32,000 nucleotides of DNA from positions 49,715-81,714 of the forward strand of contig NJBF01000015.1 of NCBI GenBank assembly GCA_003144275.1, written 5' to 3'. The stretch is from Candidatus Heimdallarchaeota archaeon B3_Heim (lineage in GTDB: Archaea > Asgardarchaeota > Heimdallarchaeia > Hodarchaeales > Hodarchaeaceae). The notes under the pieces were generated by a model that was given only the letters and a program-made list of their open reading frames with translations, had not been told where the DNA came from and did not search any database. The position numbers were made by a program, and so were the translations under genes. Position 1 is the stretch's first letter. Each line of letters opens with the position of its first letter. Below, piece after piece: positions 10,433-26,376 of this stretch.

Positions 10433-11860
10433 GTGTCTGTCGATATCTTTAAGTGTATAGCACTAAAGATCGTGTATGAAATGCCTACAATTTGTATCTG
10501 CTTAGCCAATGATCCAATTCTAAGTGTCTTCGCTTTTAAGCCTGGTGAAAAAATTAATATTCACGTTGCGTTTGAAAGTGAGCAGATACCAGGACGATAT
10601 CGTCTACAAATTCTAGATCATAAGAAAAATTCACGTATGAATCGATATGGAATAGGTTTAACTGACATAGTGGTTGACAACTGGCCAATCCCAGTATCTA
10701 TACGGGATGATCATCTAGGGATTTGGCAAGTTAAGGTAGACGGTATGAACAGTGTGAAAGAAGTACGATCACTTGGAGAAGAAGGCCAAAAGGGTATATC
10801 TTTTAGCCAAATTTTTTTTGTAGAAAAAACAGAAAGGGTAGAATATCCTTTACTCGGTGGAGATATAATATATCAACTTCCAGAAATTCTTCCGATAGTA
10901 GAAGAAGAAATTATTGGTATTAGTGATCCCGTTGTTTCTGTTGTCGCATTAAAGGAAGAAAAGGTCGAAATTCCCACACCAACTAGCGATTTTAAGGCTG
11001 AAATTCCTATCACAGAAGTTCGTGGTATTGGAAAGACATATACTGGTCGATTAGCCCAAATAAAAGTTATTACTGTCTCGGATTTATGGAATTACAGAGA
11101 CCGCATCAATTTAGCTGAAATTATGAGAATTAACGATAAGAGACTTGAGAAGATGCTACAGGATGCAGAACTTCTCCTTAGTGAAAAAGCTGACGAAGTA
11201 AGCAGGATTGAGGTAGAGAAAGAGCTGGAATTTGTTCCTGATGATTTAAGAATGGTTAAAGGAATCACTACCTCACATATCAACCAACTAAAGCGAATTG
11301 GTGTGAAATCAAAGACTAATTTGTTAGATTTCCAGGATATCACACTTCTCAAAGGCACGCTTCGAGTGTCAACAACTGAGCTAAGTAAAATGTTAGCCTC
11401 CATAGGTCGGATAATTGAACCTGAAAGTGTTCGAAAACAAGAACCAGTAAAACCATTGGATCAACCAGTGACTGTGCTCAAAGGGATTGGTAAGGTAACT
11501 GCAGGAAAGCTGCAATCAGTGGGGATTTTAACCGTACAAGACCTACTTAATTCATCAGTTGAAGATCTTGGTGGGTTTGCAACAAAGAAAACATATCATA
11601 AATGGAAACAAAATGCCTCACACTATGCACAATTCCCATTAACTGATGATTCAGAAGTTGATGATAAAAGTAAAATACCCGACGAACTGCTATCACTCCC
11701 AGGCATAGGCCCAAAGACTGTAGGAAAATTGCATACACTAAAAATATTTACTTTACTTGATCTTATAGTTTTTGAAGAGTCTGAACGTCTAAGGAAAGTT
11801 TTAAGGATGTCAGAGTCGCGTTTCACAGCGTTCATGGAAAAATTATCCTCTAATGGTTGA
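10433..11860 (+). CDS. MG2-like Ig domain fused to four helix-hairpin-helix modules (HhH_5/DUF4332-like)
   Basis: Four modules: EVRGIGKTYTGRL, MVKGITTSHINQL, VLKGIGKVTAGKL and SLPGIGPKTVGKL, each followed by a (G)I.T..DL-like segment. Likely start 10481. Confidence 0.8.
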   Translation: MSVDIFKCIALKIVYEMPTICICLANDPILSVFAFKPGEKINIHVAFESEQIPGRYRLQILDHKKNSRMNRYGIGLTDIVVDNWPIPVSIRDDHLGIWQVKVDGMNSVKEVRSLGEEGQKGISFSQIFFVEKTERVEYPLLGGDIIYQLPEILPIVEEEIIGISDPVVSVVALKEEKVEIPTPTSDFKAEIPITEVRGIGKTYTGRLAQIKVITVSDLWNYRDRINLAEIMRINDKRLEKMLQDAELLLSEKADEVSRIEVEKELEFVPDDLRMVKGITTSHINQLKRIGVKSKTNLLDFQDITLLKGTLRVSTTELSKMLASIGRIIEPESVRKQEPVKPLDQPVTVLKGIGKVTAGKLQSVGILTVQDLLNSSVEDLGGFATKKTYHKWKQNASHYAQFPLTDDSEVDDKSKIPDELLSLPGIGPKTVGKLHTLKIFTLLDLIVFEESERLRKVLRMSESRFTAFMEKLSSNG

Positions 11861-12127
11861 TCAAATTTGCCAATAACGATATTCGGGTGTGTTGTTATTT
11901 TTGTCGGTATGAAATTATAAAATAAGACATCTTCCTCAAGTGATTCACCTATACATCATAAGTAATTAATTGCATTAATCGTGCGAGGGTAAGAATAAAC
12001 GACAAATTTTTTTACTTATAATTAATTGAAAGAGCGCTTGATTAAAGATTATACAATCATTGTTTGTTCACATCTGGTAAACTGAGTGGACAATCTGTAC
12101 GACTTACAATAATAAAAAAATGAAAAG

Positions 12128-14347
12128 GTGACATCAAAATTGTCATATGACCAATATAGAAATAGTAGCAAAGATGAAAAAATTGGTGCAATAAAAACTC
12201 TTGAAAGACAGCAAAATAAGAGTGCGTTGCACGCATTATTTGAATTTGCTCTGAAAGATCAGGACAAGGATGTACGTAAAGCCGCGATAGATTCTATTGT
12301 AGTTTTAAACGATCCTGAAGCAGTCTCTGTATTACAGAGAATTCAACAAGATGATAGAGATCGTGGAGCTCGAAATAAAGCCAAAGACGGAGCTAATAAG
12401 ATTCAGCAATTTGGAAGGCCTTTAGGTGAAAGTGAATTTTCAGAAGAAGATGAAGAAAGGGCTGCTGATGATTATCGTGCTCTAGATGAATCAGAAAAAG
12501 GACAGGCCGGCTTATACGTAAAAATTCAAGAAACCCTTCAATATCGAATCGATAGAGATAATAATCTTGTAGATGAAGAAGGTGAACAAATTGACGGACT
12601 TGTTGGTACTGGAAAGCTTGAAATCGCCAATACAGGTAGTAAAGACAGGATTTGGGCGGTTGACGCGGTTTTAGAAGGTGTAGATGAGGTCACTTTCGAA
12701 GCAGACGAAGAACAGGGTACAGCAGTATTTGGTAACTCGTTTGCTCTAAAAGAATTAGATCCAAAGTCATCCAAGTATGTTCCGTTTGAGTTTCAAGTTG
12801 AAGCTCCAAAGCTAACTGTCAAAGAAGATTTTTGGGATTTAGAAAAAGAGGATTCACCTCCGCTATTCACAAGGGGTGAAGAATCTGGTATGAAATTCAC
12901 CTTACAACTGACAAACGAATTTGATTATCCTCTAAGTGATGTGGTTGTTAAAAAGTACATTTTGGATGATGCAACTAATGTAGGGGACTTTGATGCTAGT
13001 GTAGGAAAATTAAATCAAAGCTCAGATGACGATGGAAGTCATGTTCTCTGGGAAATTGAAGAAATTGAGGCTGGTGACACGGTAGAAGCAAGCTGTGTGA
13101 TGAAGGTTACGTTACCTGAAGAAGGAAATGATCCATACCTCATTGGTGATACAAAAACCACCTACAAAGTTGTAGAAAAAAGTCTTTCTGGTTTGGACAT
13201 GGATACTGTCACAGGCAGTTCATCTGTTTTTCAATTCATCTCACGTGAGGAACAAGAAGAAAATCCTGGTGATTTTGATTGTTTGTTTGAGCTAGAGAAC
13301 ACTTCTGAATTCGAAATGGATCTGAAAGAAGTTAAAATCTATGAAGGGCCTCTTGATGAAGGAAACATTCGTGTCGAGTGGCTTGGAAAAGACTTTCCTG
13401 AAGAAGAACGATCTATTGATCCTGGTGAGACTTTCTCTCTTGATCCTTGGACAATAACGGTCGAAGATGACAACATGATTCCCCAGTTTGGGAGAGAACT
13501 TGATCTAAGTGTCAAATATATCTATGATGCTGAAGTTGTTGCTGAATGTGTATTACCTGGATATGCGTTACCATTCATGGGTATTGAAGTGACAAAGACA
13601 TACGATCCTCTCGAAATACCATCATTCAGAAGAACAGAAGTCATATCTGAACAAGTCGTAAAATCAATCGGTAGTACAGAGATTATGTATCTACAGCTGC
13701 AAGAAGCTCTTCCTGAAGGTTTTGAAGGCCCTGAACGAGATCAAATAGAAGTTTTGAAAGAAGGTGAGCAGCTTGAAGACTTTAATTTTGATGTCTCTGA
13801 TGGTAGCGTTGTAATTACGATGGAACACTTGGAAGAAACAGAGTTCGGTCCTCTTGCGCAAGATGAAGAAATTCTTGTAAAATATCCAATCTACGCCACA
13901 GCTAAACCTGAAGAAGAGTTCACAGGAACGGTTACAGCGTTAGGGAATATGTATCCAGAAGTAAAACCCATTTCTGCAGAAGCTGAAGCTGGCCCTATTA
14001 CCGTCGTACATCAACGAAGAAAGCTAAAAATTGGTAAAATGGTATCTTCAACCTCCTCAGAGGAAGCTAATGAATACGAAGTAGTTCTTCGAGGTGTTAA
14101 CGATGGAACTGCAGTCATTCAAAATGTTGAAATCACAGATTTCCTACCTCAAGGGTTTGAGTTAGCAGGAGAGACCCATGAGGATCCCGAAGTTGGTTTT
14201 GAAGAACATTCTTCAGTGAATAATGGACAAGCTATGAAATGGATTTTTGAAGAAGTCCAACCAGATCAGAAAGTTGAAATTCGGTTTAAAATCAGAGCAC
14301 CTGGAGAACATGATCCTCACGAAGTTTATAGAATGCTTCTTGGGTAA
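12128..14347 (+). CDS. Acidic cytosolic protein: HEAT repeats + mu-homology-like domain + further Ig/DUF11-like beta-sandwiches (adaptin/coatomer-like)
   Basis: HEAT-like ALHALFEFALKDQDKDVRKAAIDSIVVL and AVSVLQRIQQDDRDRGARNKA. Residues ~128-365 follow the AP-mu/delta-COP strand order. C-terminal VEITDFLPQGFEL...KWIFEEVQPDQKVEIRF is DUF11-like. No signal peptide or TM is visible. The CDS itself is certain; the domain call is inference. Confidence 0.7.
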   Translation: MTSKLSYDQYRNSSKDEKIGAIKTLERQQNKSALHALFEFALKDQDKDVRKAAIDSIVVLNDPEAVSVLQRIQQDDRDRGARNKAKDGANKIQQFGRPLGESEFSEEDEERAADDYRALDESEKGQAGLYVKIQETLQYRIDRDNNLVDEEGEQIDGLVGTGKLEIANTGSKDRIWAVDAVLEGVDEVTFEADEEQGTAVFGNSFALKELDPKSSKYVPFEFQVEAPKLTVKEDFWDLEKEDSPPLFTRGEESGMKFTLQLTNEFDYPLSDVVVKKYILDDATNVGDFDASVGKLNQSSDDDGSHVLWEIEEIEAGDTVEASCVMKVTLPEEGNDPYLIGDTKTTYKVVEKSLSGLDMDTVTGSSSVFQFISREEQEENPGDFDCLFELENTSEFEMDLKEVKIYEGPLDEGNIRVEWLGKDFPEEERSIDPGETFSLDPWTITVEDDNMIPQFGRELDLSVKYIYDAEVVAECVLPGYALPFMGIEVTKTYDPLEIPSFRRTEVISEQVVKSIGSTEIMYLQLQEALPEGFEGPERDQIEVLKEGEQLEDFNFDVSDGSVVITMEHLEETEFGPLAQDEEILVKYPIYATAKPEEEFTGTVTALGNMYPEVKPISAEAEAGPITVVHQRRKLKIGKMVSSTSSEEANEYEVVLRGVNDGTAVIQNVEITDFLPQGFELAGETHEDPEVGFEEHSSVNNGQAMKWIFEEVQPDQKVEIRFKIRAPGEHDPHEVYRMLLG

Positions 14348-14360
14348 TCAAAATAACTCT

Positions 14361-14380
14361 CCTTTCTTTTTTCTTTTTTT
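14361..14380 (+). terminator. T-rich archaeal intrinsic terminator
   Basis: cctttcttttttcttttttt 13 nt after the stop at 14347. Confidence 0.6.
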
Positions 14381-14483
14381 AATACTTTCTCTCGGATTTT
14401 CTTGTATAATGTAATTTCTGAATGTCAACATTTTTGAATTAGATTCAATTCAGCTGAAAGTATTATTACTTGAGGACTTACAA

Positions 14484-15224
14484 TTGGCTCAACCAGTAGT
14501 TTTTTCAGAGATTAAACAGCTTTTAAAAGATGAAAATGATTTACAACCCTTTATAACAGAATTAGAGCATTCGAAAAAGGCGTTATTTTTCTATTGGGCA
14601 TTGGATTCATTAGAGAATGATTTAGATAATTCAACATTAGAAAATAATAGAAATTTGTTGAAAAGTATTCAAGATAAGGTATGTGCAGCGCCAAACCTTG
14701 AATCAAGTTTGAAATCCTATTCCCCTGGTTTTGTCCTGGGTCTTCTGGAATTTAGTATTCGATCTATTGAAGCTAATATTGAAACGCATTTAGAATATCA
14801 AAATTTAGTTGCTAAGATTGAAACGTGGGTGAAAATTGGTTTTTCCAATCCAGATATGGAGAAACACTATTTAGAGACAATTCGGGGGATTCATGAAATT
14901 CGAGATTGGCAAAAGATGAAATCAGAGGAATACTATCCGATTGTGTTCCAATTAATTAATTCTTCTCGGTATCAGAGATCAGATAAGCAGATACTAAAGT
15001 TTTTACAAAAAAGAGCCAATGATGATAAGATCATATTCTATCTACTTTCACAACTCTTGAGAACTAATCCAGTACTCCATAATAAAGTATTAACTTTATG
15101 TGAAGAAAAGAGTATATCATTTGAGGAAATTAAGGAGAAACTTGTCCGTGTAATGCTCCTCTTAGGTGAGGAAACCACTGATCCTAAGGTGGGACAATAC
15201 ATCAAATTATTTCTGAAAAAGTAG
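14484..15224 (+). CDS. Hypothetical, predominantly alpha-helical protein (246 aa)
   Basis: Long ORF with a TTG start preceded by GAGG and an amphipathic helical pattern. No family recognised. Confidence 0.8.
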   Translation: MAQPVVFSEIKQLLKDENDLQPFITELEHSKKALFFYWALDSLENDLDNSTLENNRNLLKSIQDKVCAAPNLESSLKSYSPGFVLGLLEFSIRSIEANIETHLEYQNLVAKIETWVKIGFSNPDMEKHYLETIRGIHEIRDWQKMKSEEYYPIVFQLINSSRYQRSDKQILKFLQKRANDDKIIFYLLSQLLRTNPVLHNKVLTLCEEKSISFEEIKEKLVRVMLLLGEETTDPKVGQYIKLFLKK

Positions 15225-15258
15225 TCTTAAAGTAATTAAATGGGATGTTGGAATAACC

Positions 15259-15705
15259 TTGAAGATTTATTTGTCAGGTGCAATACGTGGAGGTAGGCAG
15301 CTTCAGAAAACTTACCAAATTATTCTGGATTTCTTACAAAAGAATAATCATGAAGTACTTACTCACCATGTGGCTTCACAAGATGTGCTGGAGATCGAAA
15401 ATTCATTAAGCGAAGTTGATATTTTCACCAAGGATGAGAACTGGTTGAATGAATGTGATTGTGTAATTGCTGAGGTATCAGTTCCAAGTTTAGGTGTAGG
15501 GTATGAAATTGCGTATGCATTATGCATAAAAAAACCCGTCATGGCAATATTTGGTAAAAAATTTGAACCAATATCGGCTATGATAGCTGGAAATACATCT
15601 CCTTTACTTGTAGTAGAGAAATACTCCTCCCATTCACAATTAATAAGCTTTCTTGCACCTTTTCTTGATAAAATCCAAAGTTCGACACGAATTGCGCTTG
15701 AGTAG
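15259..15705 (+). CDS. 2'-deoxynucleoside 5'-phosphate N-hydrolase (DNPH1/Rcl), nucleoside deoxyribosyltransferase fold
   Basis: KIYLSGAIRGGR, EVLTHHV, IFTKDENWLNECDCVIAEVSVPSLGVGYEIAYA match DNPH1/Rcl motifs. Confidence 0.9.
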   Translation: MKIYLSGAIRGGRQLQKTYQIILDFLQKNNHEVLTHHVASQDVLEIENSLSEVDIFTKDENWLNECDCVIAEVSVPSLGVGYEIAYALCIKKPVMAIFGKKFEPISAMIAGNTSPLLVVEKYSSHSQLISFLAPFLDKIQSSTRIALE

Positions 15706-15751
15706 GTTTATCTTTTAAGAAGAAAATGTCTCTCAGTTCTTTCAGGAAAAT

Positions 15752-16402
15752 CTAATTTTCTACTCTAATTTCCTCTTTGGTAAACTTTCTAACTAAAGGA
15801 CGAATACTGAGACCTATAAAGATCAGCAGGACATCCAATCCAACTATACTCACTAAAAAGAAAGAGAACATTGGCTGAATCGTGGGAAGCTGGGCAAGTG
15901 TTGGAGGAGTGAGTGAAAGGAATCCAAAAAAGTCCATAAAATCGTTGAAAAGTGTTAAAAAGATAACGAAGATTGTCGTCTTAGTAATTTGTAAATTTCT
16001 TAAGAAAGGAAGGATAAGTAGAGCTTGAAGCAGCAATATTGTATGTCCTAGAATAACAATCTCTGTATCTAATGATGAAAAATTTGCAACAATTAGGTAA
16101 GTAAATATTGCTCCCCTAACCCCTTGAATAAATACCAACAAGTTGTAATTCAAATATCGCTGCCGATCTACTTGAAAGTAAAACCCAATTAGAAGAAAAA
16201 CAGCCATAGGACAATCAGGAATTAATATCCACAAGTATGGAGGGAAATCAGCTATTGGTATGACATCGATATAATATTGAAATCCAATAATGGCACCAAG
16301 CAAATTTCCAATGATTAAGAGTGTTATTATCCACTTATTGCCTAATATACGTCTTTCATGCTTTTCTAAGGAATTTATCATCCCATTTATAATTGCGGTC
16401 AT
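15752..16402 (-). CDS. DUF1405-like integral membrane protein
   Basis: Multi-TM protein with IGNLLGAIIGFQYY, ILIPDCPMAVFL (family PD(S/C)P motif) and NDFMDF. Confidence 0.75.
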   Translation of the reverse strand: MTAIINGMINSLEKHERRILGNKWIITLLIIGNLLGAIIGFQYYIDVIPIADFPPYLWILIPDCPMAVFLLIGFYFQVDRQRYLNYNLLVFIQGVRGAIFTYLIVANFSSLDTEIVILGHTILLLQALLILPFLRNLQITKTTIFVIFLTLFNDFMDFFGFLSLTPPTLAQLPTIQPMFSFFLVSIVGLDVLLIFIGLSIRPLVRKFTKEEIRVEN

Positions 16403-16523
16403 TCGTGTGCACTTAGATAACCATTTATTAAAACACTCTTCTAAACGAGAAATAACATCAACTTCTTATATCATGATCACCCAGCAAGTAATGAAATTCT
16501 GAATAAAATCGAGTTGAAATAAA

Positions 16524-17615
16524 TTGGATAGAGATGTGCTTTTCTGTGTTTTTACGAAACAAAAACAGGCTGTACCTATTTTTTATACAAAACATAACCT
16601 TTCAGATTCTGAAGTCGCCCAAGTTGCGTTAAAATCGACAATGCCATTATCAATGATGACTAGTTCCGAATTAGATAATACAGAGGCGATATTACCATTC
16701 TCAGGCCTTGCTGAAAAACGAATTGGATTTATCTTTTTATTCCAAATCAATCAAAATGATCCTGTGACCCCTCATTGTGTTGCCGCTCTTATTTATCTAA
16801 TGCCTCACGAGCAGCAAGCATTTCTATATTCTAAGATTCCATTCCTCAAACACACCGCAGAAGATATTGCCTCAAAGATTAAACAACAATATATATACGG
16901 AGAGAGAAAACTTCTTTCAAATGAGTTACAATCCTCGGTCAATAATTGGTTAGTTACTGATAAAGATACAACTACACATGTACAAATTATTGAAAAGAGG
17001 GTAACCTACTCAGAGAGAACAGATGAAGGGAATCTCGATTTCTTATTTTCTCAGATAAAAAAGAATGATGATAAATTGCTAGGTGCGATTTACCGGGGGA
17101 ATCCAGTTTTAGTAACAGGTGAATCACAAGTAATGATAGATCTTATAGTCCATAGTATAGATCTTCTCATTCCTCAAATTATTCTTCGGAAGGTCAGCTT
17201 CACAGACGACGTTCTTGATCCAAAACAAGCAGATATTATGGGTATCTCAAAGAATCTTGTAAAGCGCTATCCACAAGAGCTACAGATTGATAGTGATAAA
17301 AAACAAGTAAAAAATGGACAAACGTGTAACTACTCTAAGGAAGTCCTGAAGCAGATAAAAAAAGAACCCAATCGGGCAGAAAACATACTTACACAGGCAT
17401 ATACTCAAATTTTAGAAGTAGCTAATTTGCTGATAGATGTATTCACATATCCCGAAGAAGAACGGGAGCAGTTAATTGTTAACGTTCGCAACCAGCATGA
17501 TGAGACACTTATTGAAGTGGCAGTGGACCTTGCAGCCAAAAGAAATCCCTTGATCCGTGAATTACTCTTTCAGCAAGTATCCTCAAGATTTATGGATTGG
17601 ATGGATGGTTTTTAA
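16524..17615 (+). CDS. DENN-like protein (uDENN longin + cDENN alpha/beta + helical tail)
   Basis: N-terminal longin pattern (VLFCVF..AVPIF...EVAQVALKS...GFIFLF...AALIYL). Central FLFSQIKKNDDKLLGAIYRGNPVLVTGESQVMIDLIVHSIDLLIP resembles the cDENN core. Confidence 0.65.
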   Translation: MDRDVLFCVFTKQKQAVPIFYTKHNLSDSEVAQVALKSTMPLSMMTSSELDNTEAILPFSGLAEKRIGFIFLFQINQNDPVTPHCVAALIYLMPHEQQAFLYSKIPFLKHTAEDIASKIKQQYIYGERKLLSNELQSSVNNWLVTDKDTTTHVQIIEKRVTYSERTDEGNLDFLFSQIKKNDDKLLGAIYRGNPVLVTGESQVMIDLIVHSIDLLIPQIILRKVSFTDDVLDPKQADIMGISKNLVKRYPQELQIDSDKKQVKNGQTCNYSKEVLKQIKKEPNRAENILTQAYTQILEVANLLIDVFTYPEEEREQLIVNVRNQHDETLIEVAVDLAAKRNPLIRELLFQQVSSRFMDWMDGF

Positions 17616-17631
17616 AAAAAAGGGATGGTGG

Positions 17632-18465
17632 TTAGCTTTTAGAAGCGCCTAACCATCCTTTTGCCCAATTAGGAGTATAGACTGCGATCCACATCAGAAC
17701 TGCATATATCATGATCATGAACCTGGCGGAGATCGACCAGAGAGCGTCATTCAGTAAAAGCTCGACATTTATTTTTGCACTGTCAAAAAATGCTGTAAAT
17801 GAGCTTGGGCTGAGGACTTCAATTGTAAAACCAATCGATAAAACTACCTGACTTAAGAAAAACCATCCCACTCGACGCCACGCGCTTACACCTTTCCGCT
17901 TTAATGAAACGCTCAAGAAGAGAAACAGGAATGACACTGTCCATAAGGGAACTAAGAAAAGAATCCACAATATGAATGTAGTAGAAGCATCATGAGTTGG
18001 GCTCCAATCACCCTCATGGTATACAAAATAAAAGGGAGAGGTAATTATGAGTACTAAATAGGCAGTAATAAGTAATATTGGTATTAGTAATAATTTTTTA
18101 TTACTATCAGGGAAAAAGGACTGAGTAAAGAAGTTAGCAGAAATAATGGCCAAACCACTGGTTATCCAAGCAAGAGCTGCAAACAAAAATCCGACCCAGA
18201 ATACATCAATGTCTGAATATTGGAAGATACTGATTGCGTCATCAAGTATTTGCGAATCAAGAGGATCTGCATTGACGAGTAACACCAATTGTTCAAGTGT
18301 AAGTAAGAGTAGTGCCAATCCACCAAATAAGAGAAGTAACGATAGATATAACGTTTGTTTCTTTTCAGAAATTTTATATGAACGGTAAAGACGGGTACCG
18401 AGCGCTAAATAAAATATAATTCCCAATACGACAAACACAACCCCGATTAAATCTGTAGTTTCCAT
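17632..18465 (-). CDS. Orphan 7-TM membrane protein (receptor-like), no output domain
   Basis: Seven hydrophobic segments (about aa 6-27, 38-63, 88-112, 125-146, 163-186, 198-219, 241-263), then an amphipathic TPNWAKGWLG tail. GGTGA RBS upstream. Confidence 0.75.
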   Translation of the reverse strand: METTDLIGVVFVVLGIIFYLALGTRLYRSYKISEKKQTLYLSLLLLFGGLALLLLTLEQLVLLVNADPLDSQILDDAISIFQYSDIDVFWVGFLFAALAWITSGLAIISANFFTQSFFPDSNKKLLLIPILLITAYLVLIITSPFYFVYHEGDWSPTHDASTTFILWILFLVPLWTVSFLFLFLSVSLKRKGVSAWRRVGWFFLSQVVLSIGFTIEVLSPSSFTAFFDSAKINVELLLNDALWSISARFMIMIYAVLMWIAVYTPNWAKGWLGASKS

Positions 18466-18649
18466 TAAGTTTCACCTGTAAAGCTTTGAAAGTTCATCAG
18501 AACGATAGTATAGTTGTTGTTATAATGTAATTACTAATCCTCAAAAAGTTTATGACGCCACTTGGAAGAGAAGGTGAAGTCAAAAAACACTTTAATTAAT
18601 TCGAAAAACTCCATTCTGCTTATTTTGGGAGTCTCTTAACTTCTCAAGG

Positions 18650-20137
18650 GTGAAAATATTGGCCTCTTCTTCTGATAATAGAATTGATGAAATCGGTGTG
18701 GAATTCGAAAAGTATCATATCCAGCTCTCAGAGCAGCGCTATAACCAAACTAGCGGGTTGGACTATGATAAAGCTGTGATGGAAGCAGCAAGCAATTCAT
18801 TAGTGGATTTAAGCACATCCTTTCTTACTCAATACTCAGAACCTCGCTCGTTCTATCTACATTGTCTCGCAGCAATATCTCAAGCACGTAAACTCCCAGT
18901 TACACTAGAGCTCTATGAAAAACGAACGAAAATATTATCGAGTGAAAAATTCAAGATTCATGGAAAACCCGTAAATTGGGGTTCATGGCGCCAATTCAAT
19001 GCAGTCGAGCCAGAAGATAATAATCGTAAACAGTTATTTGACGAGTTCATCCAGAAAGCACCAAATATTGCCCCATTAATTACAAAACGTTTTAATATCT
19101 CACGCCAAGTCTACAAGCTATATGAATCGAGTCCTTTGGACGCGTATCTTGAGCGAGAGTATTTAACTTACAATAAATTGAAAGACTTCGTGAATATTCT
19201 GGGAGATGGAGCGAGAAAATCATTTCTAGTTGCCGCAGACCATTTTGCTCCTGAAATTCTTGGAAAAGAGTCATTTGATTATCATGATGACTTTTACCTC
19301 GCAAGGGGACGAATCTACTCCCCTCTAAACAAGCACTTCATAAAGAAAAACCCCCAGAAATCGATTGAAAAAGTAGTATCGAACCTGGGTTTTGGAGAAG
19401 AGTTACACAAGATAAAAGTTGACAATGAGGATCGTGATAAGAAGTCACCTTCAGCATTTTGCTTTGGTATCCAAATTCCAAATGATGTACGTGTCGCTTA
19501 CAAGCGAGTGTCACCATTTAGCGACTTTACAAGTCTTTATCATGAATATGGTCACGGAATTCATGGTGCATCAGGTAAAGAAGACGATCCATTCTGGAAG
19601 CGGTATATTATTCCAATGAGCGTAGCTGAGACGTTTTCTATCTTTCTTGAAATGTTATTGCAACAGCCATTATATCTACAAAATGTACTCGGGTTGAATG
19701 AAGATGTAGTTCAAGAGATTCTTGATCGTCGACATTTCATGAATCTATACTTCTTAGTATTTTATGCTGCAAATGCACGAATGAAAATAGAATACTGGAA
19801 AAAGGGCTATTCTTATGAAGAAGCCTCCAAGAGATTCCAAGAACTAACTAAGAGGTATTTTTGGGAGGTTCCAGGTGATTACTGGTTAACACATCATATT
19901 ACACCAAATTATGATGTTTACGCCCCCTCCTATATGCTAGCTAGTGTACGTGTCAAAGAATGGATGAATCAAATGATAGATGAATTTGGTGAGGAATTTT
20001 GGCGTGGAGATGCGGCAAAACAAGTTGGAGCTGTAATTCGTGATCTCGCAACAGCACGTGGAGAGTTTGATCTGTCCGTTTGGGATATGGATCCACAACC
20101 TTACCTCAAGGAGCAATCCGAGTTATCTTTTTTCTAA
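18650..20137 (+). CDS. Zinc metallopeptidase, M3 (oligoendopeptidase F)-like
   Basis: PSAFCF, SLYHEYGHGIH (HExxH), downstream SVAETFSIFLE (third ligand Glu) and YAPSY. Confidence 0.88.
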   Translation: MKILASSSDNRIDEIGVEFEKYHIQLSEQRYNQTSGLDYDKAVMEAASNSLVDLSTSFLTQYSEPRSFYLHCLAAISQARKLPVTLELYEKRTKILSSEKFKIHGKPVNWGSWRQFNAVEPEDNNRKQLFDEFIQKAPNIAPLITKRFNISRQVYKLYESSPLDAYLEREYLTYNKLKDFVNILGDGARKSFLVAADHFAPEILGKESFDYHDDFYLARGRIYSPLNKHFIKKNPQKSIEKVVSNLGFGEELHKIKVDNEDRDKKSPSAFCFGIQIPNDVRVAYKRVSPFSDFTSLYHEYGHGIHGASGKEDDPFWKRYIIPMSVAETFSIFLEMLLQQPLYLQNVLGLNEDVVQEILDRRHFMNLYFLVFYAANARMKIEYWKKGYSYEEASKRFQELTKRYFWEVPGDYWLTHHITPNYDVYAPSYMLASVRVKEWMNQMIDEFGEEFWRGDAAKQVGAVIRDLATARGEFDLSVWDMDPQPYLKEQSELSFF

Positions 20138-20170
20138 AGCTTGAAATAGCTCCCCCTTATATCATAATCA

Positions 20171-22756
20171 TTATGAAAAGATATCCCATTCCATATCGTC
20201 AGCTGTAGCAAGAATTGCATTAAATGTAACAAGATCCGCCAGTGTAACAGTTCCGCTTAGTATAGAATCTATTAGTTCGATACACCTCGCTGAATTAACA
20301 TAAATTGAATTGGTGGCATTATCTTGAATATCGCCCCTTACTAAATTTTGCCAATTTGTAATAGCACTCTGGTTCAGGAGATGGGTTGGTACAGTGGCTA
20401 AGATATCATAAGTTTGATTAGCTGAGATTTGACTTTGGGTAAAGTTACCTCGTGCAGCCGAATAGTTCGCGGGGCCAACCAGATCTTGTGTTATAGTATC
20501 ATTTAATACCTTGATACCTAAGGAGAAAGCAGAACTAGCATCGTAGGTACCTTGTAATGCAGCATAATATTCACCTACTACATCAAATTCTGATGTTGTA
20601 TCATCAATAAATGTCTGTAATTCAGCTAGGAATGAATTTAGCGCTTGAAATTCGAGTTCATTTTGAGAGGTGACAATTGCATTCATCTCCCCTAAACTAT
20701 CTTGTGTGCCATTCAAGTACATACCTGTATTTGTTAAGCCTAATTCAATATCTTGCCAAATAGGATCATCAATATTTGAGACATTAGAGAAGGAGACATC
20801 TTGAAAAAGCCTCAAAGTATTGTTTAGTTGTTGAAACATCTGAGTTCCATTCTGAATCGTATATAAGAAATATTTGGTAACTGAATGAAGATTAATACTA
20901 AATTCTGCAAGATCACGAATAGGGACAATTGAGGTATTAGGTAGGGTTTCAACATCAATATCAAGAATCGAGGCTGATCGATCAAAATCAGCAGAAGCGC
21001 TTGCTAAATAATTACTGTCAAACTCGAAACCGAATAAATCGTCAATCACTAGTGTTAATTTGTATGTACTATTCACCCAAGGAGTCAAACCGTCTAAAAT
21101 AGTAATTAAAATCGGTAACACCAGTTCTAATTCCGTTAAAACGGAGGAAATTTCTGCAAAAACCGAGTAACCTAATTTTTCTCTCGCTTGTGAAAAAAGA
21201 GTAAGAAGTGGATCCTCTATGGAAGTAAGATTGTTTGTACCCTGAAGAAGAAGGTCAAGGGCAACCCGCATAGACGGGTCATATGTTGCCGTAATTGATG
21301 CGCCGTAACCACCAAGGGGAGAATGATCAATAGAGCCTTGGAGTAGAGTAAAAGTAAGATTTATTCCAGACTCTAAATTAGTTAAAGACCAAAGTAAATT
21401 GGGAACGTACGTCAACGCACTAGAAACGACTTTAGTTAAATCAAGAATTTGTGGTAGATCTTTCAGTGGTATTCCAGCAACTTGAGGTATGATAAATGGC
21501 AATAAGTATGCAATGAGGGGATTTTCGGCAAATTGTTTAAAAGAATTACCTGCTTTATCAAAATTGAATTGAGCAGACTCTATTAAAGCCATTAATCTAT
21601 CAAAATTCTCTTCGAGATTGGTGAAAAAATCCTCTGAAAAGATGTCGGCTGTTTCTGTAACACCAATACTCGCATATAATGTTCCTTCCATACCTTTTCC
21701 GATTGCATGGTAAGTCATTGGTATTATGATTATCGAGATTAGAAATAATGCGGCAAACAATGTTTTGACAGTAATTGTACGTATTGAAAGTTTTTTCTCA
21801 ACTTTTCCAAGTAGTCCTGCTAATCCAGCTCCAATGGTAAATGGAGTTATCCCTAGAAGGATAATATCAAGAAAAGGGACAATTGCTCCTAGTAGGTCAA
21901 AACCAATGAAGATTTGAGAACCTATTGATTCCACAATCGATTTATTTCGTAGGATTCCAACCAAATTTTGCCTTGAGATATTGTTGAATATACCCCATGG
22001 ATTTATACCATCGATTAAGATGTTAAAATGTATTAAAGTTTCAATTATCAAGTATGAGGAAATTAATGAGAGTATACCTAGGGGAGAATGACGAAAGGAT
22101 CGTTTAACAATGGGATATAGACACACTAGGATAGATAATAGACAGATAACTAATAGATATGTTGTCATCTCTTCTAGCCAAGTTATAGGGAGAACAATTA
22201 CAACTAATGTTGGCAAAATTATACTTAAGGCAAATAGTGTGAGTTTTCCTTCAGTTGTTTCCAGGATTGGCACATAAGAAGTTTTACGCGATAATTCCAC
22301 GGAATTTGAAGCATGATAAATAGCTTTGATTTTTCCTAATCCTTGTATTGGTTTAGTTTCAGGTTGAATTATTTGGATAAGCAGGTTAACAAGTGTTTTA
22401 TAACCAATATAGTTATATTGGGCATCAACGCCTTCTAAAACTAGATATTCAAACTTATTCCGAAAAAGGAGAGAAATTGGACCGATTTTCTCAAAAACCA
22501 ACATTAAGATATGAATTTCCTCTTCACTACTAAAACTGGTACATTTCTTAAATTTCAGATTCCTTAAGTGGCCTTGCGCAAATCCATAATGTTTGTCGCG
22601 ACTATGTTCGTTTAAAGCCCGTAACATCTTTTCTTTAGGAAAGCTAGGAAATTCAACGGATGGATCAGTTAATGAATTAACATTAAAACGGAAGGATTCT
22701 ATTTTAGGTTTTCCTTCTGCTTGTAAATTGAAGCTGATTTGGCATTTATCAGGCAT
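20171..22756 (-). CDS. Large membrane protein: ~170-aa soluble N-terminal domain, ~5 TM, long helical sequon-rich C-terminal region
   Basis: 861-aa ORF. Hydrophobic block at about aa 172-350. The C-terminal half is amphipathic-helical with 14 N-x-S/T sequons counted by eye. Confidence 0.8.
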   Translation of the reverse strand: MPDKCQISFNLQAEGKPKIESFRFNVNSLTDPSVEFPSFPKEKMLRALNEHSRDKHYGFAQGHLRNLKFKKCTSFSSEEEIHILMLVFEKIGPISLLFRNKFEYLVLEGVDAQYNYIGYKTLVNLLIQIIQPETKPIQGLGKIKAIYHASNSVELSRKTSYVPILETTEGKLTLFALSIILPTLVVIVLPITWLEEMTTYLLVICLLSILVCLYPIVKRSFRHSPLGILSLISSYLIIETLIHFNILIDGINPWGIFNNISRQNLVGILRNKSIVESIGSQIFIGFDLLGAIVPFLDIILLGITPFTIGAGLAGLLGKVEKKLSIRTITVKTLFAALFLISIIIIPMTYHAIGKGMEGTLYASIGVTETADIFSEDFFTNLEENFDRLMALIESAQFNFDKAGNSFKQFAENPLIAYLLPFIIPQVAGIPLKDLPQILDLTKVVSSALTYVPNLLWSLTNLESGINLTFTLLQGSIDHSPLGGYGASITATYDPSMRVALDLLLQGTNNLTSIEDPLLTLFSQAREKLGYSVFAEISSVLTELELVLPILITILDGLTPWVNSTYKLTLVIDDLFGFEFDSNYLASASADFDRSASILDIDVETLPNTSIVPIRDLAEFSINLHSVTKYFLYTIQNGTQMFQQLNNTLRLFQDVSFSNVSNIDDPIWQDIELGLTNTGMYLNGTQDSLGEMNAIVTSQNELEFQALNSFLAELQTFIDDTTSEFDVVGEYYAALQGTYDASSAFSLGIKVLNDTITQDLVGPANYSAARGNFTQSQISANQTYDILATVPTHLLNQSAITNWQNLVRGDIQDNATNSIYVNSARCIELIDSILSGTVTLADLVTFNAILATADDMEWDIFS

Positions 22757-22924
22757 AGGAGTTCACGAATCTCATATAGTTGATAAGTCCATATAATTAT
22801 GTATTAATATAATATTAACCTAATTCCATATAAATTGGCGAATCCTTTTAAGAAAATACTTTTCAGTGAACATCATTGAAATAATAACAAATTTGTGGCT
22901 CAAGCTATAAGAGGAGTTAGTACA

Positions 22925-23464
22925 TTGCCAAAGAAGAAAGGAAAGACGGGTAAATTTGCATTTAAACTACTTCTGGTGGGGGAACCTGAAGTGGGAAAGA
23001 CTAGTTTAATTAAACGTTATGTGGATAACTTTTTTGAAGAGGGTTATCAAATCACACTAGGAGTAGATTTTTTATCAAAAACAGTAATGTTAGATGTGGA
23101 GGAAGGTAAACAGGAGTTAATATATCAGATTTGGGACGTAGCAGGGCAGAGTGGGTTTACTAACTTCCGTCATTTATACCTTAAAAAGGCTCATGGCGTT
23201 TTTCTTGTTTTTGATCTCAGCAGACCTGAAGAAACTTTCACAAAGCTTGAACGATGGCGAAGTGATGTACGGGAACAGAGTCCAAACGCCAAAATCATTG
23301 TGATTGGTAATAAAGAGGATCTTGCGGAAGGAAAAATCCCTGGTTCTAAAGAAGAAATAATAGAAAAGTTTGAAGCAGAGGAGTTTATAACAACATCGGC
23401 TAAAACAGGATCCAAGGTAGAAGCTGCGTTCGTTCAGATGGGTAAGTTGATCTTAGGAGAGTAA
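22925..23464 (+). CDS. Rab-like small GTPase (no C-terminal CC/CAAX tail)
   Basis: G1 GEPEVGKTS, G2 TLGVDF, G3 WDVAGQ, G4 NKED, G5 SAKTG, plus RabF-like IWD and LVFD elements. The TTG at 22925 after GGAG is preferred over the GTG at 22895. Confidence 0.93.
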   Translation: MPKKKGKTGKFAFKLLLVGEPEVGKTSLIKRYVDNFFEEGYQITLGVDFLSKTVMLDVEEGKQELIYQIWDVAGQSGFTNFRHLYLKKAHGVFLVFDLSRPEETFTKLERWRSDVREQSPNAKIIVIGNKEDLAEGKIPGSKEEIIEKFEAEEFITTSAKTGSKVEAAFVQMGKLILGE

Positions 23465-23470
23465 AGGACA

Positions 23471-24259
23471 ATGGTTTCTTTTAATGAACTTGAAATCTTC
23501 TTGGGTTTCTTTGTATTTACTAACAAAGGACGACCTCTAATCGCCAAGGATTTTCGTCCAAATAAAGATGCTGATGATTTCTCCCCTAAACAAATCTTCT
23601 CTCTTCTTCAATCAGCATTCGACCTTTCACAAGGATTAAAAGAAGAAAAAATTGATCCAGGACAAATATTTTATGTGGACTTTTCTTCTATGCGCATTGC
23701 TGGCATTCTCCGAAGTGAAGGATTGTTCGCACTAATTACTTCCGCTTCTGCTTCATTATTAGATATCGAATTTAAATTAAGGACTTTAATGACTTTATTT
23801 CTCGGAAGTTTCTCCTATAAATTTGGTAGAAAATCTATTAGAATAACCTCGAAAGAGAAAAAAGAATTTGACGGGGCAATTTTAACAGTCATGGCTGGAG
23901 AAAGTAGATATATGGGTGAATCCATGAAACAAGCTGTGGATGCAATTCTGGTAAAATGGATGAAGAATGAAGAAGCCATTCAGGGAGTGTGTATCTCTTC
24001 TTTCACAGGAGCTGTTATTGTGAATCGTATGGATTCAAAAATCCTTCCAGCAGCAGTTCGTGCGATTCGAGGAGCATTCGCTGCTCATCTAGAACAACCA
24101 GTATTCTTTCTTGCTGTTAGTGGGGTTTCTAATATCTTTGTCTACATCTTAGGAGAAGGGTTATTGCTACTTGTTGATGCGAACCCGAAAATTGCGCCCT
24201 CTGCTGCAATTACGACGATAGAGTCGAAAATTACTGATATCAAACAATTAATTATTTAG
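23471..24259 (+). CDS. Longin + roadblock/LC7 two-domain protein
   Basis: N-terminal GFFVFTNKGRPLIAKDF resembles the first strands of sigma-adaptin/zeta-COP longins. C-terminal LVKWMKNEEAIQGVCISSFTGAVIV...GLLLLV is roadblock-like. Starts 6 nt after the GTPase stop. Confidence 0.7.
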   Translation: MVSFNELEIFLGFFVFTNKGRPLIAKDFRPNKDADDFSPKQIFSLLQSAFDLSQGLKEEKIDPGQIFYVDFSSMRIAGILRSEGLFALITSASASLLDIEFKLRTLMTLFLGSFSYKFGRKSIRITSKEKKEFDGAILTVMAGESRYMGESMKQAVDAILVKWMKNEEAIQGVCISSFTGAVIVNRMDSKILPAAVRAIRGAFAAHLEQPVFFLAVSGVSNIFVYILGEGLLLLVDANPKIAPSAAITTIESKITDIKQLII

Positions 24260-24276
24260 GTAATATTATTCCTATT

Positions 24277-26376
24277 GTGAAGAGCTTGATAGAGCAGCAA
24301 AACCAAGGAACAGTATATTTTCCAATCGTATTCCATATGCATCAACCCGTGGGGAATTTTCCTTGGGTCATTGAAGATGCTTATCAAAAATCTTATCTTC
24401 CACTTCTCAAAACTATTCAAAAATTTCCAGATATCAAGATAAATCTCCATATTTCTGGACCCTTATTAATTTGGTTAAAAGAAAACCATTCTGACTTTTT
24501 AGATCTCATTTACGGTCTATACTCAAATCATCAGCTAGAGATCGTTGGAGGAGGATTTTATGAACCAATTCTAGCAGTAATTCCTGAAGAAGATCGCTTT
24601 AGACAATTACAGAAAACGATTGAATGGTGGAAGTCCAATTACAATATTACTCCAAGAGGGATATGGCTTGCAGAAAGAGTATGGGTTCCTGATCTCCCAA
24701 GAACACTTTCAGAAATGAAAGTTGAATTCGTCTTTATCGATGATTATTTGCTCCATATGGCTGGGTTTTCGGAAGAGGAGACCTTCTATGCCTATAAAAC
24801 TGAATACCAAGGAAAATCCATAACAGTCCTTCCCATTAATGAATCAATTCGTTATTTAGTCCCTTGGAAGTCCCCTTCGGAATCGATCCGTTATCTTCGT
24901 AAAGCACGAGATCCTCGTCACGAAAAAATCGTTGTAATGATATCAGATGCAGAAAAAATGGGAGTATGGCCTGCGGGAGATCGTACAACACACGATATTT
25001 GTTATATTAGTGGATACGATGGAAAGAAAGGATGGATGGAAAGTTTTTTTGAGTCTCTTGTCGAAAATGACTGGATCAAACCTACATTAGTAAGTACGTA
25101 CCTGAATGACCATAATCCAAGAGGGCTTATTTACCTACCAACAAGTTCTTACGATAAAATGGCAATCTGGGCACTTCCCACTCCTTTACGAATTCGTCTG
25201 GAAGAGTTACGAAAGAAAGCTGAAAATGGTGAAATACCCCATGCTGAAGATGTTTTGACCTTCGCTAAAGGATCTCTTTGGCAGAATTTTCTGATAAAAT
25301 ATTCACAAGCAAATGTAATGCATAAAAGGATGTTATACTGTAGACACAAATTAAAAAAAATCGAATCTTTTACCTCTTCCACCGACCTTGAAGATGTATG
25401 GGAGCATATCCTCTCAAGCCAATCCAATGATGCCTACTGGTCAGGGATGTTTGGAGGAATTTACTACAGATTTCTTCGTCACACCTGCCTAAAACATGTT
25501 AATAAAGCAGAGTTTTTGATGGATCAGATTTGTAAAGAGCATGAAATAGAACTACCCGGTGTGTTAATACAAGATATCTTATTAGATGGCCAACCTGATG
25601 GTGTTTTAGAAAATAAGAATATATCCTGTTTCATTTCGTCACTTAAAGGAGGATCTATATTTTCTCTTAATTTAAAGGAACGAGGTTATGATTTTCTAAA
25701 TGTTCTAAGGCGATCTTTGGAAGCTTATCATACAGGGGAGATTCCTGTTGTTGAAGATAGGATAGAAAAATGGACGTTTCAAGATCACTTCTTTCACGAG
25801 ATAAATGATATTCAAACTTATCAAACAGATCAATATGTAGATATGGGAAATTTTGCAAATCGAAGATATACCATTCAACCAGATAATAAAGGATCAATAA
25901 CCCTAAATCGAATTGGGCAGGTGACAGGGAAGAATGGAAGAATTATACCCGTTTCAGTAAAGAAAACATATCAGGTTGATGATTCAATTTTAACTGTATA
26001 CTATGAGATTTTAGTCTCAGATAATGATTTTGATAGTAGTTTTTATTTTTCTCCAGAAATGAACTTCCTTGGAGCTTCTTATCCATATAAAACTAATGGG
26101 TTCCTAAATCAAGAAAAATTTGACCTTGATAAAGGAATCTCTAGAGCGTCGTGCCATCATTTTAAAATTCAGGATTTGAATGAGATTGAACAAGTCTCAT
26201 TAAAGGTAAAATTTCCTTATCCAATCCGTTGCATTGCATTCCCTCTAATGTCATTTGCTAAAAGTGAAATCGGTTACGAGGAGCAATATCAAGGTACTTC
26301 CATTTATCCATTCTTTGAAATCAACAAGAAAAAGACGATTTTTCAGATGGAGCTAACGTTAACACATTTGGAATGA
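24277..26376 (+). CDS. GH57 alpha-amylase/4-alpha-glucanotransferase (AmyA-like, with DUF1925/DUF1926-type C-terminal domains)
   Basis: FHMHQPVGNF, LHISGPL, GGGFYEPIL, WLAERVW (catalytic Glu), SDAEKMGVWP (catalytic Asp), SQSNDAYW and GIGYEEQYQG-like SEIGYEEQYQG. Confidence 0.94.
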   Translation: MKSLIEQQNQGTVYFPIVFHMHQPVGNFPWVIEDAYQKSYLPLLKTIQKFPDIKINLHISGPLLIWLKENHSDFLDLIYGLYSNHQLEIVGGGFYEPILAVIPEEDRFRQLQKTIEWWKSNYNITPRGIWLAERVWVPDLPRTLSEMKVEFVFIDDYLLHMAGFSEEETFYAYKTEYQGKSITVLPINESIRYLVPWKSPSESIRYLRKARDPRHEKIVVMISDAEKMGVWPAGDRTTHDICYISGYDGKKGWMESFFESLVENDWIKPTLVSTYLNDHNPRGLIYLPTSSYDKMAIWALPTPLRIRLEELRKKAENGEIPHAEDVLTFAKGSLWQNFLIKYSQANVMHKRMLYCRHKLKKIESFTSSTDLEDVWEHILSSQSNDAYWSGMFGGIYYRFLRHTCLKHVNKAEFLMDQICKEHEIELPGVLIQDILLDGQPDGVLENKNISCFISSLKGGSIFSLNLKERGYDFLNVLRRSLEAYHTGEIPVVEDRIEKWTFQDHFFHEINDIQTYQTDQYVDMGNFANRRYTIQPDNKGSITLNRIGQVTGKNGRIIPVSVKKTYQVDDSILTVYYEILVSDNDFDSSFYFSPEMNFLGASYPYKTNGFLNQEKFDLDKGISRASCHHFKIQDLNEIEQVSLKVKFPYPIRCIAFPLMSFAKSEIGYEEQYQGTSIYPFFEINKKKTIFQMELTLTHLE

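Follow-up and report, generated by a model that had tools for sequence, protein, structure and literature searches.

We analysed a 32,000-nt stretch of DNA from Candidatus Heimdallarchaeota archaeon B3_Heim (contig NJBF01000015.1, positions 49,715 to 81,714). We call this stretch the window; it corresponds to G000:C27:49715-81714, where G000 is the organism's own genome and G, C and L numbers stand for the genomes, contigs and loci that were compared. Between positions 12128 and 24259 the window encodes a Rab-like small GTPase, a protein composed of a longin and a roadblock domain (hereafter LR), a longin-DENN protein, a HEAT-repeat protein and two membrane proteins of 277 and 861 amino acids (aa). 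A first-pass annotation had proposed that these six genes jointly form a GTPase-regulated coat system. We conclude, with a probability of about 70%, that the interval is an ordinary syntenic block at the genus level and not a coat or trafficking system, and that its single functional module is the operon in which the GTPase gene is followed by the LR gene.

The G000 assembly comprises 3.95 Mb in 103 contigs, with a completeness of 94%. Homologues of the window proteins carry the names Candidatus Hodarchaeales, Hodarchaeota or Heimdallarchaeota, and one congener is Ca. Hodarchaeum mangrovi. The sequencing runs with matching DNA were marine-sediment or cold-seep metagenomes, in which it made up small shares, and none of those listed was an RNA run.

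The GTPase and longin-roadblock operon

The GTPase had been cast as the switch of the annotated system, and its identity as a Rab-like protein stands. In addition to its Pfam Ras match (E 2.2e-37), the best 60 matches in a PDB sequence search were all Rab/Ypt/Sec4 proteins and Thorarchaeota Rab, with E-values from 9e-28 to 4e-24. Across 17 orthologues and paralogues there is no variation in the motifs GEPEVGKTS, TLGVDF, WDVAGQ, GNKED and TSAK, so that G1 to G5, the switch I Thr and the switch II Gln are all intact. The start was placed at TTG 22925 by alignment of the orthologues, and a Shine-Dalgarno-like element, GAGGAG, lies about 9 nt before this codon. The C-terminus (...LILGE) contains no Cys, so the eukaryotic Rab prenylation motif is absent; the N-terminus is polybasic and may confer affinity for membranes.

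An AlphaFold2 (AF2) model of the LR protein, calculated from 26 orthologues and paralogues (pLDDT 83), gave the topology bbabbbaa followed by abbabbba, as assigned by DSSP. The C-terminal domain (residues ~146-262) is a roadblock. In the VIA comparison it matched the MK-D1 (Prometheoarchaeum) roadblock 7yh1 with a Z of 15.1 and an rmsd of 1.9 over 107 residues (aa 151-259), and it matched MglB, LAMTOR2/3 and the Rag C-terminal domains with Z of 13-14. The N-terminal domain (aa 8-147) is a longin, with Z of 13.7 against COPI zeta, 13.6 against synbindin and 12.9 against Sec22b and VAMP7. The longin-roadblock call made for this gene is thus upheld by both the predicted topology and the structural matches.

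We then considered the kinship of the LR family. The best whole-chain Foldseek matches of LR were subunits of BLOC-3, Mon1-Ccz1 and CPLANE (E 3.7e-7 to 1e-5). When the family profile A5, built from 43 members, was compared with PDB sequences, it matched the first longin domain (LD1) of Mon1 at 1.9e-7 and 2e-7 and human MON1A at 3e-5, against 0.03-0.3 for other longins (Bet5, SRX and Trs23); its C-terminal half matched Asgard Roadblock3 (9jue) at 5.6e-9 and MglB at about 5e-4. Of the 43 members, 23 had a match to the Pfam family Fuz_longin_1 (PF19036), in most cases with a score slightly short of the cut-off. Judged by sequence, the longin domain of the LR family therefore appears nearest to Mon1 LD1. 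We regard this relationship as a lead for the LR family and not as membership, as it rests on the wider family profile. A structure of a Lokiarchaeota 'Roadblock-Longin protein' is present in the PDB (8yqg). We found no literature on archaeal Mon1-like longin-roadblock proteins, which does not prove that there is none.

It has been reported that in Mon1 and Ccz1 LD1 is a canonical longin, LD2 is of the roadblock type and LD3 is a lamtor domain (Klink et al., PMC8833172). The domain order of LR, longin then roadblock, equals LD1-LD2 of the tri-longin Rab guanine nucleotide exchange factors (GEFs), namely Mon1-Ccz1, Fuzzy-Inturned/CPLANE and HPS1-HPS4/BLOC-3. Like these, LR is paired with a Rab-like GTPase, and the tandem copies LR-a and LR-b that occur in some lineages recall their heterodimers. 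However, LR consists of two domains with no LD3, measures ~260 aa against 400-650 aa, and is present as one copy per operon in G000. No alphaX-betaX linker of the tri-longin type is evident in LR, for which the GEF role is a prediction. The operon likewise resembles MglA-MglB and the archaeal and Asgard GTPase-roadblock pairs in that a Ras-superfamily GTPase is encoded beside a regulator with a roadblock fold; it differs from MglA-MglB in the additional N-terminal longin of LR and in the GTPase, which is Rab-like and not MglA-like. The linker between the longin and roadblock domains of LR contains a G-E-x-R motif (G143, E144 and R146), in which the Gly is invariant and the Glu and Arg are nearly so across both paralogue families and the copies of the sister family. 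From its conservation, this motif is a candidate functional site, and the Arg may possibly be an arginine finger.

The comparison of loci shows that the GTPase and LR genes form a conserved operon. The gap between the two genes is 5-6 nt, or replaced by an overlap, in all orthologous loci. A paralogous GTPase and LR pair is found in G000 at C4:42.8-44.2 kb and in every congener that was examined, with no other window gene alongside; the identity to the window pair is 43-47% for the GTPases and 24-29% for the LR proteins. The arrangement also extends to other lineages, in which a GTPase lies immediately upstream of LR in G256 and in six loci from metagenomes or metagenome-assembled genomes (MAGs), five with a Ras-type and one with a Rag-type GTPase. 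Three of these six loci (L121, L122 and L124), as well as G022 (L022, C134), show the order GTPase, LR-a, LR-b. The LR-a and LR-b copies form separate clades with 100/100 support; their placement relative to the two Hodarchaeum LR clades is not settled by the tree. LR lacks an adjacent GTPase in most loci of family f14, in one Baldrarchaeota locus and in one Lokiarchaeota locus, and the last two have Roadblock genes beside LR. Tran et al. (2024, PMC10933270) report that the GTPases of MK-D1 as a rule do not share an operon with a roadblock or longin gene.

With a threshold of E up to 1e-5, the LR profile had matches in 115 of 251 Asgard genomes, the weaker of which are in many cases confined to the longin domain. 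Among 1.84 billion proteins the family had 104 representatives at E up to 1e-3; nearly all are 240-270 aa long, and those with a taxonomic name are Asgard. LR is thus a rare Asgard-wide family of ~250-270 aa. On the downstream side, a GH57 gene starts 17 nt after LR on the same strand and follows LR in 10 of the 12 congener loci that reach that far, possibly as a third member of the operon.

Density and synteny of the cluster

Small GTPases number in the dozens in Asgard genomes, which also encode many proteins of the longin, roadblock and DENN types. In G000 there are 49 Pfam Ras matches and, after adding the Arf and Rag types, about 58 small-GTPase loci, together with 7 Roadblock/LC7 genes, 3 members of the DENN-like family and 2 LR members. 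The Pfam models for Longin (PF13774) and DENN (PF02141) gave no match in the whole genome; as both were also silent in all control genomes, this absence is uninformative.

To see how often clusters of this kind arise by chance, we placed 70 GTPase, roadblock, LR and DENN-like genes randomly on the real contigs in 2000 trials and inspected windows of 12.1 kb. At least three of the 70 genes fell within some 12.1-kb window in 65% of the random trials. The real genome has four loci with at least three such genes, namely C23 with three GTPases, C57 with a roadblock-GTPase-roadblock trio, C87 with four Rag-like GTPases, and the interval studied here. Because the GTPase and LR genes form one operon, the cluster in the window amounts to two independent units. 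We also calculated that the regions within 6.5 kb of a small-GTPase gene make up 14% of the genome; the probability that at least one of the three DENN-like genes would be found there is 0.37.

Two of the other loci deserve a description of their own. At G000:C57:16972-18933 a roadblock gene, a small-GTPase gene and a second roadblock gene lie on one strand, and this trio may be the G000 copy of the MglA/MglB-type or the published roadblock-GTPase operon. The four Rag-like GTPase genes of C87 lie within 7 kb (C87:81-88 kb), more densely than the cluster in the window.

Next, we examined the synteny of the interval. The block from 12128 to ~26376 is collinear in about 14 congeners, metabolic genes included, and in 14 congeners the orthologues of the DENN-like and LR genes share a contig at a distance of 5.6-7.6 kb. 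Comparison of G000 with the complete congener G009 over 400 kb yielded blocks of 32, 21, 13 (the block of this interval), 11 and 10 genes, and 66 of 236 orthologous genes (28%) lie within blocks of at least 13. The block is not uniform within the genus: HEAT-DUF11 and GH57 are absent from it in G016 and G001, the gene for the 277-aa membrane protein has no match in three congeners and is on the opposite strand in several more, and the DUF1405 gene is missing or moved in several.

Outside the genus, the arrangement dissolves. G022, of the sister family, has its DENN-like gene on one contig and the GTPase-LR-LR array on another, and the other window genes are not beside either. Among 17 DENN-like loci of other families or paralogues, 15 have no small GTPase in the fetched flanks (up to ~8 kb on each side), and in the remaining two, both of a single genus, a small GTPase is encoded at a distance of 4-7 kb; the other two DENN-like genes of G000 are on contigs with no GTPase nearby. 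The DENN-like family occurs in 53 of the 61 genomes of the class, and a single-sequence query recovered LR in 24 of 61. In other words, the co-localisation on which the coat proposal depended is confined to the genus, and the local density of such genes is one that chance reproduces; these are in essence the two outcomes that the annotation had named as speaking against a cluster. The annotation itself had cautioned that the genes might be close by chance, and this caveat is the better reading.

Liu et al. (bioRxiv 10.1101/2020.10.19.343400) report that most genes for eukaryotic signature proteins in Asgard archaea lie outside conserved neighbourhoods, and they highlight one operon in which roadblock, Rab-like GTPase and DENN genes are combined. 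Longin-DENN proteins of archaea and operons of a GTPase with a roadblock protein are already described in the literature. The window shares the same three fold classes with the operon of Liu et al., and the 363-aa DENN-like protein has the domain organisation reported for FLCN-like proteins of Heimdallarchaeia. However, its gene lies 5.3 kb away, is transcribed separately and is linked to the GTPase within one genus only. We considered the published operon as an explanation for the cluster and rejected it, because the DENN protein of the window is a longin-DENN, its gene is not adjacent, and its homologues have no GTPase neighbours.

Neighbouring genes of the interval

The features of the interval are collected in Table 1. 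All open reading frames (ORFs) listed by the annotation were found at their coordinates in the ORF list and translations. As the annotation had noted, the genes lie on mixed strands, interspersed with metabolic genes, and do not form one operon; because the strand pattern alternates, there are at least seven transcription units. The 246-aa gene may be co-transcribed with the preceding HEAT-DUF11 gene and with the gene that follows it. The HEAT-DUF11, 277-aa, 861-aa, peptidase, DUF1405 and deoxyribosyltransferase-like genes are unrelated neighbours of the GTPase-LR operon.

Table 1. Features of the interval and of the gene downstream of it, in window coordinates
Feature	Position	Strand	Basis
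HEAT-DUF11 protein, 739 aa, cytosolic	12128..14347	+	Pfam HEAT_2 6.5e-11 and DUF11 1.4e-8; no transmembrane segment
Helical orphan, 246 aa	14484..15224	+	No Pfam family; order kept across the genus, 35-92% identity
Nucleoside 2-deoxyribosyltransferase-like (NDT-like) protein, metabolic	15259..15705	+	Pfam PF05014 1.5e-10
DUF1405 membrane protein, six transmembrane segments	15752..16402	-	Pfam PF07187 2.8e-11; weak NCBIfam LhaT match; six hydrophobic segments
Longin and DENN protein, 363 aa, folliculin/SMCR8/C9orf72 type	16524..17615	+	AF2 and Foldseek; monocistronic, convergent with the 277-aa gene
Orphan membrane protein, 277 aa, seven hydrophobic segments (7TM)	17632..18465	-	Hydropathy; no Pfam or NCBIfam family
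M3-like zinc metallopeptidase	18650..20137	+	Pfam Peptidase_M3 2.5e-8; NCBIfam M3_fam_3 3e-13; HEYGH motif in the translation
Orphan membrane protein, 861 aa	20171..22756	-	Hydropathy and sequon count; divergent from the GTPase operon
AT-rich divergent intergenic region, 168 nt, TATA-like stretches	22757..22924	.	Read from the sequence
Rab-like small GTPase, 179 aa from TTG 22925 (longest ORF from GTG 22895)	22925..23464	+	Pfam Ras 2.2e-37
LR (longin and roadblock), 262 aa	23471..24259	+	AF2 topology and VIA; starts 6 nt past the GTPase stop
GH57 alpha-amylase/4-alpha-glucanotransferase	24277..26376	+	Pfam GH57 5e-42, with AmyA middle and C-terminal domains

The 739-aa protein had been taken for a coat-like adaptor with HEAT repeats and an MHD, and this assignment is not supported. 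Pfam places HEAT_2 at aa 11-85 and DUF11 at aa 633-723. The layout consists of PBS-type HEAT repeats at aa 6-93 (about 90 residues), an acidic linker and tandem DUF11-like beta-sandwich domains. A weak DUF11 match also falls at aa 255-332, inside the supposed MHD, while a search of the protein with Adap_comp_sub gave no match even at E 10. The only PDB matches of the orthologue profile were alphaRep/HEAT chains, and the structural neighbours in the Atlas were archaeal multi-DUF11 proteins (TM-score 0.53). The protein resembles AP and COPI adaptor subunits in combining HEAT-type helical repeats with beta-sandwich domains. However, the adaptor solenoid exceeds 500 aa, whereas here ~90 aa of PBS/alphaRep-type HEAT replace the long trunk, and the beta-rich part is like the tandem DUF11/CARDB sandwiches of prokaryotes.

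HEAT_2 genes were seen at several LR loci. G000 has about seven such genes; one is the 739-aa gene, within 8.5 kb of the window's GTPase-LR module, and another (L021:11995-14370, G000:C4) lies 3.8 kb from the paralogous module. A 210-aa HEAT_2 protein is encoded directly after LR in the metagenomic locus L117 (L117:4875-5507), and four other LR loci have no HEAT_2 gene. Segmental duplication was considered as the cause of the HEAT genes near both modules of G000 and rejected, as the two HEAT proteins differ in architecture.

The DENN-like call for the 363-aa protein was correct. Its AF2 model (pLDDT 83.6, pTM 0.81) and full-length Foldseek comparison show an N-terminal longin (uDENN), a central DENN core and a helical dDENN. 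All leading Foldseek matches were full-length with a probability of 1.00, with DENND1B first (2.8e-9), followed by C9orf72, FLCN, FNIP2, SMCR8 and DENND10, and an Atlas feature score of 0.94 connects the protein with a Heimdall cluster carrying Folliculin. Among curated models, the protein itself has no Pfam match; its orthologues carry SMCR8_C (PF27109), and within the DENN-like family 4 of 30 members match Folliculin (PF11704) and 2 of 30 a C9orf72-like model (PF15019). Folliculin-like longin-DENN proteins have been reported in Heimdallarchaeia (bioRxiv 10.1101/2020.10.19.343400). The window protein belongs to this family and is near the GTPase by chance or through a genus-specific history.

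Catalytic longin GTPase-activating proteins (GAPs) of the FLCN/SMCR8/NPRL2 type carry two marks in their longin domain, a GP motif that precedes beta2 and an arginine finger (PMC12290439). When the family was aligned, most members, including the G000 paralogues on C15 and C88, showed G-P before beta2, and several clades had an Arg in the beta4-beta5 loop; this Arg may correspond to the eukaryotic arginine finger. In the window protein the sequence is K-Q-A-V-P, with Q-A for G-P, and the loop Arg is replaced by Cys. By analogy, this protein may act as a non-catalytic partner. It matches FLCN, FNIP2, C9orf72 and SMCR8, members of FLCN-FNIP and C9orf72-SMCR8, over the full length, and its paralogues carry the GP motif of these complexes and of GATOR1 NPRL2-NPRL3. 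Unlike their catalytic subunits, it has Q-A and Cys, so that it resembles, if anything, the non-catalytic partner. The C15 paralogue would be a natural candidate for the catalytic partner. In its locus (L040, G000:C15:132-3675), the GP- and Arg-bearing gene (C15:1435-2598) lies between a ThiF/E1-like gene and the gene for a 346-aa orphan, all three on the same strand.

Further observations concern the DENN-like family. In another Heimdall family (L035-L039 and L044), the DENN-like homologue adjoins a homologue (35-37% identity) of the window gene at 1089-1862; within the window these two genes are about 15 kb apart. The DENN-like profile also gave a weak longin match (E 0.008) at G000:C87:16536-16811, inside an open frame of 8821 aa.

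The annotation had described the 277-aa protein as 7TM and the 861-aa protein as a membrane protein rich in N-x-S/T sites. Hydropathy agrees in both cases, giving seven hydrophobic segments for the former and 5-8 transmembrane-like segments, with a cluster at aa 173-345, for the latter. The 861-aa protein has 16 N-x-S/T sites, 14 of them within residues 466-813 of its large C-terminal region. Homologue searches for the 277-aa protein returned unnamed Asgard (Hodarchaeales-type) MAG and metagenome proteins only, none with a Pfam domain. The 861-aa protein matched no Pfam or NCBIfam family and gave no usable match in an Atlas search (TM-score at most 0.16). Both are lineage-restricted orphans, and nothing ties either to trafficking.

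Peptidases and other enzymes were also seen near LR loci. Besides the M3-like metallopeptidase of the window, two M42 aminopeptidases flank the paralogous module (L021:3510-4559 and 10792-11898), and on a Lokiarchaeota contig an M20 peptidase (L119:4790-6037) lies directly after an LR-like gene. In L117, two SIR2 genes (L117:598-2273) are found 1-3 kb upstream of the GTPase-LR pair.

Mechanism and alternative explanations

Based on the operon and on its parallels in known systems, we propose that LR may be the cognate regulator of the nucleotide state of the GTPase encoded upstream of it. LR would form homodimers, pair with its paralogue or, where other lineages have a tandem second copy, pair with that copy, and the dimer would dock on the switch regions of the GTPase and set its nucleotide state. 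Dimers of longin and roadblock domains commonly serve small GTPases as platforms, and their action may be that of a GEF, of a GAP or of neither (PMC3747258; PMC10933270). Given the Mon1-type longin and the arrangement of paired paralogues, GEF-like action appears somewhat more likely than an MglB-like GAP activity. What the analysis shows is the folds, the structure of the operon, the pattern of conservation and the outcome of the density and synteny nulls; binding, dimerisation and the direction in which LR regulates the GTPase are inferred. A more far-reaching version, which we put forward as tentative and rather doubtful, is that the LR family is an archaeal forerunner of the tri-longin Rab GEFs, in which a Mon1-LD1-like longin joined to a roadblock would dimerise via the longins and catalyse exchange on the adjacent Rab-like GTPase.

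It is possible, though not probable, that the module is the same but LR acts as an MglB-like GAP or a passive Ragulator-like scaffold and not as an exchange factor. The C-terminal domain matches MglB, LAMTOR2/3 and Rag roadblocks at Z 13-15, the family profile reaches MglB at ~5e-4, the GTPase retains the catalytic Gln and is therefore a possible GAP substrate, and the Arg of the near-invariant G-E-x-R at the domain junction could serve as a finger. However, by sequence the nearest relatives of the LR longin appear to be the LD1 domains of Mon1, which belong to the catalytic core of a GEF, the best whole-chain fold matches are subunits of tri-longin GEFs, and the tandem LR-a/LR-b parallels the heterodimeric GEFs. 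An unlikely alternative is a genus-specific circuit in which LR and the longin-DENN protein have the GTPase as their common target. LR might then be the GEF platform and the DENN protein a scaffold or a partner in GAP activity, so that the genes would be a scattered form of the published operon. The distance of 5.6-7.6 kb between the two genes in 14 congeners and the conserved Asgard roadblock, Rab-like GTPase and DENN operon predicted by Liu et al. speak for it, as does the fact that eukaryotic DENN and longin-DENN proteins are GEFs or GAPs of GTPases (PMC12290439). Nevertheless, such proximity has a chance probability of 0.37, the other two G000 paralogues and the homologues in other families are not beside GTPases, the phyletic patterns of the DENN-like and LR families differ, and the window protein has neither the GP motif nor the loop Arg that mark catalytic longin GAPs.

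We also regard it as improbable that GTPase and LR are a nutrient or storage-carbohydrate switch, co-transcribed with GH57 and controlling or reporting alpha-glucan metabolism. The tight linkage of GH57 to LR in most congener loci would fit such a switch, in a genome with four GH57 genes in all; a GH57 gene also lies ~1.5 kb from GTPases in the unrelated metagenomic locus L121 (3074-4255) and ~4 kb from an LR-like gene in L080 (5-1198), from another Asgard family, and sugar-nucleotide, hexapeptide or NTP-transferase-like genes and a PfkB kinase occur beside other modules. However, we noticed this pattern only after the fact, two congeners lack GH57, as does the paralogous module, and carbohydrate genes are missing from most other LR loci. 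Finally, the joint coat or trafficking system, with the GTPase as switch, its regulators, a HEAT adaptor, and the 277-aa and 861-aa proteins as cargo or receptors, is very unlikely. It is true that most congeners have all six genes within a single collinear block, with identities of 45-90%, the 861-aa gene and the GTPase operon have a common divergent promoter region, and HEAT_2 genes recur near GTPase-LR modules. Against this, the 739-aa 'adaptor' does not appear to be adaptin-like or MHD-like, its gene is gone from the block in two congeners and the 277-aa gene is unmatched or flipped in several, the GTPase-LR modules of paralogous loci and other lineages come without the remaining parts, and the density and synteny nulls were not exceeded in an interval whose strands alternate across so many transcription units.

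Several observations weigh against our reading of the interval as an ordinary block with one longin-roadblock module. The 13-gene block of the window is the third largest of 107 blocks in 400 kb, and seven of its genes (those for the 246-aa, NDT-like and DENN-like proteins, the M3 peptidase, the 861-aa protein, the GTPase and LR) form a core with the same order in 12 of the 13 congener loci that cover it; selection may to some extent have acted on the arrangement. By analogy with the published operon, a link between the DENN protein and the GTPase would be plausible in principle. The recurrence of HEAT_2 near GTPase-LR pairs also weighs against our reading, although it is a post-hoc observation. 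As for LR, the window protein alone has no Pfam match, the narrow LR profile A1 matched nothing among PDB sequences at E up to 10, and PF19036 also matches many other Heimdall longins weakly.

We nevertheless favour the reading of an ordinary block with a single GTPase-LR module. The occurrence of such genes within ~10 kb of each other in a Hodarchaeales genome carries little information about function. It is hard to tell which regulator belongs to which GTPase in Asgard archaea, because they are mostly not co-encoded (PMC10933270). In the present analysis one pair stands out as genuinely encoded and inherited together, namely a Rab-like GTPase and an LR protein whose nearest eukaryotic look-alikes are the Rab activators Mon1, Fuzzy and HPS1. 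If LR is indeed a forerunner of the tri-longin GEFs, then a pair of a late-endosomal-type Rab and its GEF would predate eukaryogenesis, and Hodarchaeales would possess a matched pair of GTPase and regulator. Thus, we suggest that the GTPase-LR pair is a practical starting point for biochemistry on the origin of Rab regulation.

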